From assembly GCF_056712565.1 (NCBI RefSeq), contig NZ_CM160072.1: a stretch of DNA of 64,000 nt; one strand, given 5' to 3'. Made by a program: the position numbers. Shown one piece after another: positions 4,278-7,200 of this stretch; positions within the stretch are counted from its first letter, which is position 1; each line of letters opens with the position of its first letter.

Positions 4278-7200
4278 TTATCCTTTTACGCACACCACCT
4301 GACGCAGGGTATAGATAACTTCCACCAGATCGCTTTGTGCCGCCATCACCGCATCAATATCTTTATACGCCATCGGGATTTCGTCGATCACCTCGGCATC
4401 TTTACGGCACTCCACATGCGCGGTGGCACGGATTTGATCTTCCACACTGAACAGTTTTTTCGCTTTAGTACGGCTCATTACCCGCCCGGCACCGTGGCTG
4501 CACGAACAGAACGACTCTTCATTTCCCAGCCCACGGACGATAAAGCTTTTCGCCCCCATCGAACCGGGAATAATTCCATATTGACCAGCACGCGCAGACA
4601 CCGCGCCTTTACGCGTCACATAGATCTCTTCGCCAAAGTGCTGTTCTTTTTGCACATAGTTGTGGTGACAGTTGATCTCTTCCATCGCCAGCGTTTGTGG
4701 CTGTTTTACCGTTTTCTGCGTAACGCTCTGCAACGCCGTTACCACGTTTTCCATCATCGCATCGCGGTTAAGGCTGGCAAAAAGCTGCGCCCAGGCCACG
4801 GCTTTCAGGTAATCATCAAAGTATTCCGTACCTTCCATAAAGTACGCCAGGTCACGCGATGGCAACGTTTCAAGCGTTTCCTGCATCTCTTTTTGCGCCA
4901 GATCGATAAAGTAAGTTCCGATGGCATTACCGATTCCGCGTGAACCGGAGTGCAGCATAATCCACACCTGGTCCGACTCATCAAGGCAGATTTCAATAAA
5001 GTGGTTACCCGTTCCCAGCGTTCCCAGGTGTTTATAGTTGTTAGTGTTAAGGAAACGGGGATATTTTTGCGTTAACCACTGATAACCGGCTTCCAGCTCA
5101 GCCCATTTCGCATCGACGTTAACAGGCGGATTTTCCCATGCGCCTTTATCACGTTTACAACGCCCGGTAGTACGTCCGTGCGGTACGGCCGTTTCAATCG
5201 CCTGACGCAGCTCTGCCAGGTTTTCAGGCAGGTCCGCCGCCGTTAACGCGGTACGCAGTGCGTTCATTCCACAGCCAATATCCACGCCCACCGCCGCCGG
5301 AATAATCGCCCCTTTGGTCGGGATCACGCTACCAATGGTGGAACCTTTACCCAGGTGTACATCAGGCATTACCGCAATATGTTTGAAAATAAACGGCATC
5401 TTCGCGGTATTAATAAGTTGCTGACGCGCATCGGCTTCTACCGGCACGCCTTTGGTCCACATTTTTACCGGAGCATTTTCAGTGGTCAGTAATTCGTAAT
5501 TCATTTTGTTTTTCTCTTTTCGTTGTTTGCTGTCCTGATAATTGCAACCGTCGTGCCAGAAAATCAAATAAGCATCTTAATTTTTTAATTCATTGTTTTT
5601 AAAAATATTATATTTTTACGTCCGTAAACGGAGATTTCCCGCAAAGCCGATTTACCGATAATGAAATCTCGTCTTTTATAAGGATATCTAAGATGCGTAA
5701 AACAGTGGCTTTTGGCTTTGTCGGAACGGTGCTGGATTATGCCGGGCGCGGCAGTCAGCGCTGGTCAAAATGGCGTCCGACACTCTGTCTATGCCAGCAA
5801 GAATCGTTAGTTATCGATCGGCTGGAATTATTGCACGACGCCCGCTCGCGCTCGCTGTTTGAAACGCTTAAACGCGATATCGCCAGCGTTTCGCCAGAAA
5901 CAGAGGTAGTGGGCGTTGAGATTGAACTGCATAATCCGTGGGATTTCGAAGAGGTTTACGCCTGCCTGCATGATTTCGCCCGTGGTTACGCGTTCCAAGC
6001 TGATAAAGAAGACTATTTAATTCACATCACCACCGGTACCCACGTCGCGCAGATTTGCTGGTTTCTGCTGGCAGAAGCGCGTTACCTGCCCGCCCGGTTG
6101 ATACAATCTTCACCACCGCGCAAAAAAGAGCGGCCCGATAGCCCTGGCGCAGTGACGATTATCGATCTCGATTTAAGCCGTTATAACGCCATCGCCAGCC
6201 GCTTTGCCGAGGAACGCCAGCAAACGCTTGATTTTCTTAAGTCCGGCATTGCCACGCGTAACTCCCACTTCAACCGCATGATTGAGCAGATTGAAAAAGT
6301 GGCGATAAAATCCCGCGCACCGATCCTGCTTAACGGCCCGACCGGTGCAGGTAAGTCATTTCTGGCACGACGCATCTTCGAGCTAAAACAGGCGCGGCAT
6401 CAGTTTAGCGGCGCGTTTGTGGAAGTGAACTGCGCCACCCTGCGCGGCGATACCGCCATGTCGACGCTGTTTGGTCATGTGAAAGGCGCGTTTACCGGGG
6501 CGCGGGAATCGCGTGAAGGATTATTACGCAGCGCCAACGGCGGAATGTTGTTTCTTGATGAGATTGGCGAACTGGGCGCAGACGAACAGGCGATGTTGCT
6601 GAAAGCCATTGAAGAGAAAACCTTTTACCCGTTTGGCAGCGATCGCCAGGTGAGCAGTGATTTTCAGCTTATCGCCGGAACGGTGCGCGATTTGCGCCAG
6701 TTGGTTGCCGAAGGCAAATTTCGTGAAGACCTGTACGCGCGAATAAATCTCTGGACCTTCACCTTGCCAGGATTACGCCAACGCCAGGAAGATATTGAAC
6801 CGAACCTGGATTATGAAGTGGAGCGCCACGCCTCACTCACTGGCGACAGCGTGCGTTTTAACACCGAAGCGCGGCGTGCCTGGCTGGCCTTTGCGACCTC
6901 TCCCCAGGCAACATGGCGCGGTAACTTTCGCGAACTTTCTGCCAGCGTCACGCGGATGGCCACCTTTGCCACTAGCGGACGCATCACACTGGATACGGTG
7001 GAAGATGAGATCAACCGTCTGCGCTATAACTGGCAGGAGAGTCGCCCTCCACGCTTACGGCGTTGCTGGGCGCAGAGGCAGAAAACATCGATCTCTTCGA
7101 CCGTATGCAACTGGAACACGTTATCGCTATCTGCCGCCAGGCAAAGTCGCTTTCTGCTGCCGGACGTGAACTGTTTGACATTTCGCGCCAGGGTAAAGCC

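Follow-up and report, generated by a model that had tools for sequence, protein, structure and literature searches.

Does the rtcR gene carried by one Escherichia coli chromosome segment still encode an activator able to switch on the RNA-repair operon rtcBA? The segment, called the window here, is a stretch of 64,000 nucleotides (nt) from contig NZ_CM160072.1 of NCBI RefSeq assembly GCF_056712565.1. RtcR is the sigma54-dependent activator of rtcBA and is encoded divergently from the operon. In the window the reading frame of rtcR is broken near its 3′ end. Very probably a recent, lineage-restricted deletion of a single base has made rtcR an ordinary pseudogene, with a presumed loss of rtcBA induction. 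The frameshift is already known in the sense that public annotation marks the gene as a pseudogene; a search of the literature for rtcR frameshifts or pseudogenes yielded no paper about this specific one.

The lesion is the absence of one C from a run of four. Alignment with strains NU14 and S88 shows CCC at positions 7045–7047 where the intact gene has CCCC, and the intact sequence CGCCCCTCC of NU14 reads CGCCCTCC in the window. When the missing C is restored, the result is a 1599-nt gene with 0 nt differences from NU14 rtcR, and the repaired protein of 532 amino acids (aa) shares 97.2% identity with RtcR of strain K-12. The main open reading frame (ORF) is correct up to ...NWQESRP (residue 452, codon CCT 7046–7048) and then displays 67 unrelated residues, starting with PRLRRCWAQRQK. 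One base back lies a frame that is open from position 7028 on. From TCC 7048–7050 this frame encodes 80 residues, STLTALLGAEAENIDLFDRMQLEHVIAICRQAKSLSAAGRELFDISRQGKASVNDADRLRKYLARFGLTWEAMQDQHSSS followed by a stop codon, which are identical to NU14 RtcR 453–532, and the authentic rtcR stop codon is found in the same frame at 7288–7290. On the sequence itself, chance cannot account for an exact match of 80 RtcR residues in a shifted frame. A single indel is present, both halves of the gene are otherwise conserved and there is no other difference from NU14, the properties of a frameshift pseudogene. The original prediction had the main frame correct through ...NWQESRP and nonsense thereafter, the authentic C-terminus in the next frame from about 7048, and a single-base deletion around 7046–7050. 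The reading of ORF 5693–7252 and the start of the NU14-identical residues at TCC 7048–7050 agree with this, and the alignment places the deletion within one base of the predicted position.

The features of the locus are as follows.

5693–7290, + strand: full extent of rtcR, with one C lost.
5693–7252, + strand: main rtcR ORF, 519 aa.
5693–7048, + strand: 5′ part of rtcR in the authentic frame, residues 1–452, which matches NU14 RtcR (WP_001232912.1) through P452.
7045–7047, + strand: lesion site, CCC (CCCC in intact alleles), from the alignment with NU14 and S88.
7049–7252, + strand: out-of-frame tail of 67 nonsense residues, many of them basic, plus stop codon; no family model matches the tail.
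7048–7290, + strand: stranded 3′ part of rtcR in the −1 frame, residues 453–532, a linker and a putative C-terminal Fis/NtrC-like helix-turn-helix (HTH).
5543–5558, − strand: sigma54 (−24/−12) promoter of rtcBA, intact, with perfect consensus, 39 bp upstream of the rtcB ATG (5504).
5559–5692, no strand assigned: divergent rtcB-rtcR intergenic region, predicted to hold the RtcR enhancer (upstream activating sequence, UAS) and an IHF site.
4278–5504, − strand: rtcB (RNA ligase), intact, 408 aa (S88 annotation WP_001105471.1).
3258–4274, − strand: rtcA (RNA 3′-phosphate cyclase), intact, 338 aa (S88 annotation WP_001350819.1).

The domains situated upstream of the frameshift are unchanged. These are the RtcR/CARF domain (Pfam PF06956) at residues 2–185 with an E-value = 6.5e-85, the Sigma54_activat AAA+ domain (PF00158) at residues 187–354 with an E-value = 7e-51, and the Pfam AAA_lid_14 region at residues 362–442. 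The top PDB matches are NtrC1, FleQ, ZraR and PspF. The NCBIfam model NF038308 (RNA repair transcriptional activator RtcR) carries an equivalog cutoff of 650 bits. The repaired protein, like that of NU14, scores 847 bits over profile positions 1–529 of 530; the window ORF also scores above the cutoff, with 756 bits, and aligns to positions 1–452 only. Of the parts that characterize bacterial enhancer-binding proteins, the window ORF displays the central AAA+ domain with its lid and lacks an in-frame C-terminal HTH of the Fis/NtrC type. The position expected of an RtcR gene, divergent to rtcBA with a sigma54 promoter, is found as well (rtcB/rtcA 3258–5504, − strand).

The 80 lost residues yield no HTH match by Pfam, either with the E. 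coli segment or with 68 homologous segments, and none when PDB sequences were searched with a profile. For AlphaFold, 1.84 billion representative proteins were searched and the RtcR C-termini among them aligned. With this alignment, the model of the lost C-terminal segment shows a predicted local distance difference test (pLDDT) score of 89.9; a single-sequence run gave 50.5 and was unusable. The model, whose structural score is modest, supports a fold of the lost 80 residues as an NtrC/Fis-like DNA-binding domain. According to Hughes et al., RtcR is composed of CARF, AAA+ and HTH parts (PMC7790460). Taken together, the structure model and this domain description indicate that the frameshift detaches the DNA-binding HTH. 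With the Pfam and NCBIfam boundary added, they support the earlier claim that the frameshift parts the sigma54-activator core from the DNA-binding HTH.

K-12 RtcR (b3422, NP_417880.1) offers the closest comparison with a known system. The locus order is the same (malT, rtcA, rtcB, divergent rtcR, glpR), as is the domain order (CARF, AAA+, lid, C-terminal DNA-binding domain), and the sigma54 promoter is identical. The window allele differs in that one C is missing in codon 452/453, leaving residues 453–532 out of frame. In nt sequence it is a B2-type allele with 94.8% identity to K-12 rtcR. For E. coli core genes, the whole rtc region (window 510–7290) is unusually far from K-12: rtcA and rtcB share 96.2% and 96.7% nt identity, respectively, with their K-12 counterparts, and the final 523 nt of malT share 92.4%.

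The target of the activator is undamaged. The rtcBA promoter, TGGCACGACGGTTGCA, shows the pattern TGGCAC-N5-TTGCA on the − strand and is the same in K-12 and NU14; the promoter had been predicted to be intact at 5543–5558, and it is. RtcB of the window is identical to the NU14 protein and shares 99.3% identity with K-12 RtcB, and RtcA is likewise identical to its NU14 counterpart. The 188-bp rtcB-rtcR intergenic region is identical to that of NU14, where rtcR is intact. A UAS for RtcR and an IHF site are present at PrtcBA (Kotta-Loizou et al., PMC9650030). The intergenic region also displays a perfect 8-nt inverted repeat, GAGATTTC at 5631–5638 and GAAATCTC at 5663–5670, with the arms 24 nt apart. 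The repeat is situated approximately 75–115 bp upstream of the sigma54 promoter, which is the usual enhancer distance, and the K-12 version carries one mismatch (GAAATATC). It could be a candidate RtcR binding site, although no claim to that effect is made given the K-12 mismatch.

What the lesion would do to rtcBA can be reasoned from the parts that are left. The truncated product keeps the CARF sensor, the sigma54-contacting AAA+ ATPase and the lid (residues 1–452), loses the last 80 residues and gains the 67 nonsense residues. Enhancer-binding proteins are concentrated at the target promoter by the DNA-binding domain. Extra promoter copies titrate RtcR off its chromosomal promoter (Kotta-Loizou et al., PMC9650030), and because of this RtcR appears to be limiting and to act through DNA binding. 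Since the HTH concentrates the activator at the promoter and RtcR is limiting, a truncated RtcR without the C-terminal HTH could not be brought to the rtcBA enhancer any more. Damage to tRNA or ribosomes would then fail to induce rtcB and rtcA effectively, intact as the two genes and their promoter are. What remained would be a weak activity from solution at best; activators without a DNA-binding domain do act from solution, approximately 10-fold less effectively and typically when overexpressed (PMC3844500). Most likely, stress-inducible rtcBA expression is lost or strongly weakened while the enzymes stay intact, as judged from enhancer-binding proteins at large and from the RtcR titration data. 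The original view, that rtcBA can probably not be induced unless the truncated RtcR keeps some activity, is thus reasonable, and it draws on other systems and not on this allele.

The activity that the truncated protein might keep leads to the alternative that survives best, an altered function. Here the 519-aa product would be a stable CARF and AAA+ protein that responds to damaged tRNA and, from solution, switches on rtcBA and perhaps further sigma54 promoters. The CARF, AAA+ and lid regions are all complete in the 519-aa protein. A precedent is DctD250, an AAA+ sigma54-activator core that lacks the C-terminal HTH, as the window ORF does, and can in principle contact the sigma54 holoenzyme from solution; it also has no regulatory domain and, expressed from a plasmid, activates sigma54 promoters including that of rtcBA (16-fold) (PMC3844500). 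However, activation from solution requires high protein levels and is approximately 10-fold weaker than that by the cognate activator (PMC3844500), and chromosomal RtcR is limiting, as the titration by extra promoter copies shows (PMC9650030). Nonsense tails such as the one of 67 residues found here often destabilise proteins. The C-terminal domain also aids dimerisation in several enhancer-binding proteins, which is a further point against an altered function. PspF 1–275 is another activator without a DNA-binding domain. Activators of the DctD250 and PspF 1–275 types either evolved in that form or are overexpressed constructs, whereas RtcR of the window is the product of a recent frameshift and ends in a nonsense tail. 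Unlike the HTH-less activators, it also keeps an inhibitory CARF domain and is expressed from a weak chromosomal gene. An altered function of this kind, whether as residual or as promiscuous activity of the truncated RtcR, is unlikely and unsupported. Separate translation of the C-terminal fragment from TTG 7063 is a different matter and appears unlikely as well, as no Shine-Dalgarno-like sequence was seen upstream by eye. A free DNA-binding domain made from this start could not restore activation anyway.

Recoding is the next alternative: a programmed shift of ribosomes into the −1 frame at the C run, or transcriptional slippage there, might restore a useful amount of full-length RtcR. The sequence does offer one route, since at C-CCU 7045–7048 a tRNA-Pro in the P site could slip from CCU (7046–7048) to CCC (7045–7047), after which UCC ACG ... 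gives the wild-type protein. However, direct reading of positions 7028–7060 finds no slippery heptamer of the X-XXY-YYZ form, and the predicted fold of the next 100 nt is not more stable than that of shuffled sequence (z = −0.29). Efficient transcriptional slippage would need a run much longer than three C. The CCC allele is moreover derived and rare: 39 genomes have it, and in more than 5000 the gene is a single open frame. Such a distribution is typical of a mutation, not of a conserved recoding signal. A programmed −1 frameshift is rejected for want of a heptamer and of downstream structure and for the rarity of the derived allele, and recoding of any useful kind is very improbable. A phase-variable homopolymer is rejected also: the tract has 3–4 C, all 39 carriers have CCC, and no other length occurs among the best matches.

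The distribution of the allele was determined in a set of 5426 complete E. coli genomes, in which an exact 71-mer with CCC and the corresponding 72-mer with CCCC were matched. There are 39 genomes with the 71-mer and 958 with the 72-mer; almost all of the rest show more divergent versions of the same stretch. By identity of the whole gene to the window rtcR, 4382 of 5424 genomes are situated in the 90–95% band. Carriers of the CCC allele include S88, APEC O1, ATCC 11775, JCM 20135 and five genomes of the EV36 laboratory family, and the isolate sources are human, chicken, duck, swine and dog. JCM 20135 is apparently a second type-strain assembly, since its record source fits the origin of the type strain. 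The rtcR pseudogenes of S88 and ATCC 11775 share 100% identity with the window over 1598 nt and have the same deletion at the same position; both are flagged in RefSeq as a 'frameshifted' pseudogene (ECS88_RS27745 and EAS44_RS25240, respectively). EV36, KMS2001, KMS2005 and the EV36 mutants (NZ_CP079993.1 and others) also show a frameshifted rtcR with 100% identity over 1598 nt. EV36 is a K-12/K1 hybrid that serves in studies of K1 phages; the segment from the K1 donor would then span the rtc locus.

The weakest alternative, the assembly or homopolymer error that the original prediction had itself named as the way it could fail, with a true genome of CCCC and an intact rtcR, can be set aside as next to impossible, because even though single-base homopolymer indels are a common type of error, the run of 3–4 C is not a classic hotspot, the same CCC allele comes from 39 complete genomes of many submitters and many years (and probably of several sequencing technologies), these include S88, APEC O1, the two apparent type-strain assemblies and five EV36-derived strains, the run is intact in all other E. 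coli genomes searched, and the RefSeq annotation of S88 and ATCC 11775 agrees.

The age of the deletion can be gauged from its nearest relatives. The nearest genome with an intact rtcR, FDAARGOS_1292, differs from the window by five changes over the first 25 kb: the rtcR deletion, a 1-bp deletion in a fimbrial gene and three single-nucleotide polymorphisms (SNPs). Because 958 genomes keep CCCC and FDAARGOS_1292 is only these five changes away, the CCC allele is derived and recent. No secondary decay has accumulated in the rtc locus, which likewise argues that the deletion is young. By their strain names, the carriers presumably belong to the K1-capsulated sequence type (ST) 95 complex and form a sub-lineage of B2 / K1-type extraintestinal pathogenic E. 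coli. NU14 is an ST95 strain too; since its rtcR is intact, the deletion would mark a sub-lineage.

The fimbrial change, too, is the loss of one base in this lineage: an A7 run has become A6 near 15220–15225, which frameshifts a fimbrial subunit gene (15139–15653, − strand). This gene is a 'frameshifted' pseudogene in S88 and is intact (WP_000688685.1) in FDAARGOS_1292. Inactivating indels thus make up two of the five differences from FDAARGOS_1292 in 25 kb.

The window as a whole is an E. coli chromosome segment with the gene order malT, rtcA, rtcB, rtcR, glpR, glpG, glpE, glpD ... liv ... rpoH, ftsX. Its first 25 kb show 100% identity to several complete genomes. It is nearly identical to S88, with only 7 SNPs across the first 40 kb, but the register is lost near 41302, inside ggt, where an indel or a divergent segment is present. 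Because of this break the window is from a close relative of S88 and not from S88 itself; apart from rtcR, the two differ by a few SNPs and the indel near 41.3 kb. S88 carries pseudogenes with internal stops in the matching region, tssD (Hcp-like) and yrhD, which correspond to window positions 38503–39681 and 40267–40422 (+ strand). Unlike the window, whose glpG is intact, ATCC 11775 has a frameshift in this gene.

Next to rtcR, glpR is intact in the window (252 aa, 7272–8030, − strand), with a 19-bp overlap between its 3′ end and the authentic rtcR stop. K-12 MG1655 is the reverse case, with glpR annotated as a pseudogene and rtcR intact. A second perfect sigma54 consensus, TGGCACAGTTGTTGCT, is found at 61752–61767 on the − strand, approximately 40 bp upstream of the start of rpoH (about 60858–61712, − strand, by offset from the S88 annotation). 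This site fits the known sigma54-dependent rpoH promoter, and the Salmonella RpoN regulon includes rpoH (PMC3844500).

The frameshift is not the only way in which rtc has been disabled. An independent rtcA′-′rtcR deletion is found in 565 of the 5426 complete genomes (approximately 10%), e.g. E41-1. What is left is the 3′ end of rtcA fused to the final 384 nt of rtcR (E41-1 3098–3884; window approximately 3258–7290); the 5′ part of rtcA, rtcB as a whole, the promoter and rtcR up to its nt 1215 are gone. In the junction query the two flanks have an overlap of 14 nt, suggestive of microhomology at the junction. By their names, the strains that carry this deletion are probably ST131. Like the frameshift, it is a natural inactivation of Rtc at the same locus in strains with the B2-type allele; it differs in being a multi-kilobase lesion, whereas the frameshift spares the enzymes and the promoter. 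A 2025 pan-genome paper places rtcR and rtcB_1 among the variable 'extended-core' loci (PMC12595684). The rtcR frameshift is in keeping with a broader loss of rtc in the species.

Two unrelated lesions that disable Rtc in strains with the B2-type allele could be read as a sign that, in extraintestinal pathogenic E. coli, selection acts on the loss of Rtc induction. A related thought is that the frameshifted RtcR has become a promiscuous, CARF-gated sigma54 activator without a DNA-binding domain, which acts when tRNA is damaged. Both ideas are quite unlikely. The evidence is of recurrent loss only, and neither selection nor residual activity follows from recurrence. The preferred reading remains that of a recent 1-bp deletion which left rtcR an ordinary pseudogene.

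The value of the finding is mainly practical, and no new mechanism is revealed. As the frameshift and the separate deletion show, E. coli can do without Rtc and has lost it on at least two occasions. Natural rtcR mutants include the type strain ATCC 11775, the model pathogens S88 and APEC O1, and the laboratory strains of the EV36 family. In work on RNA repair, on ribosome or tRNA damage, or on antibiotic tolerance in the strains that carry the allele, an inducible Rtc system should not be assumed.
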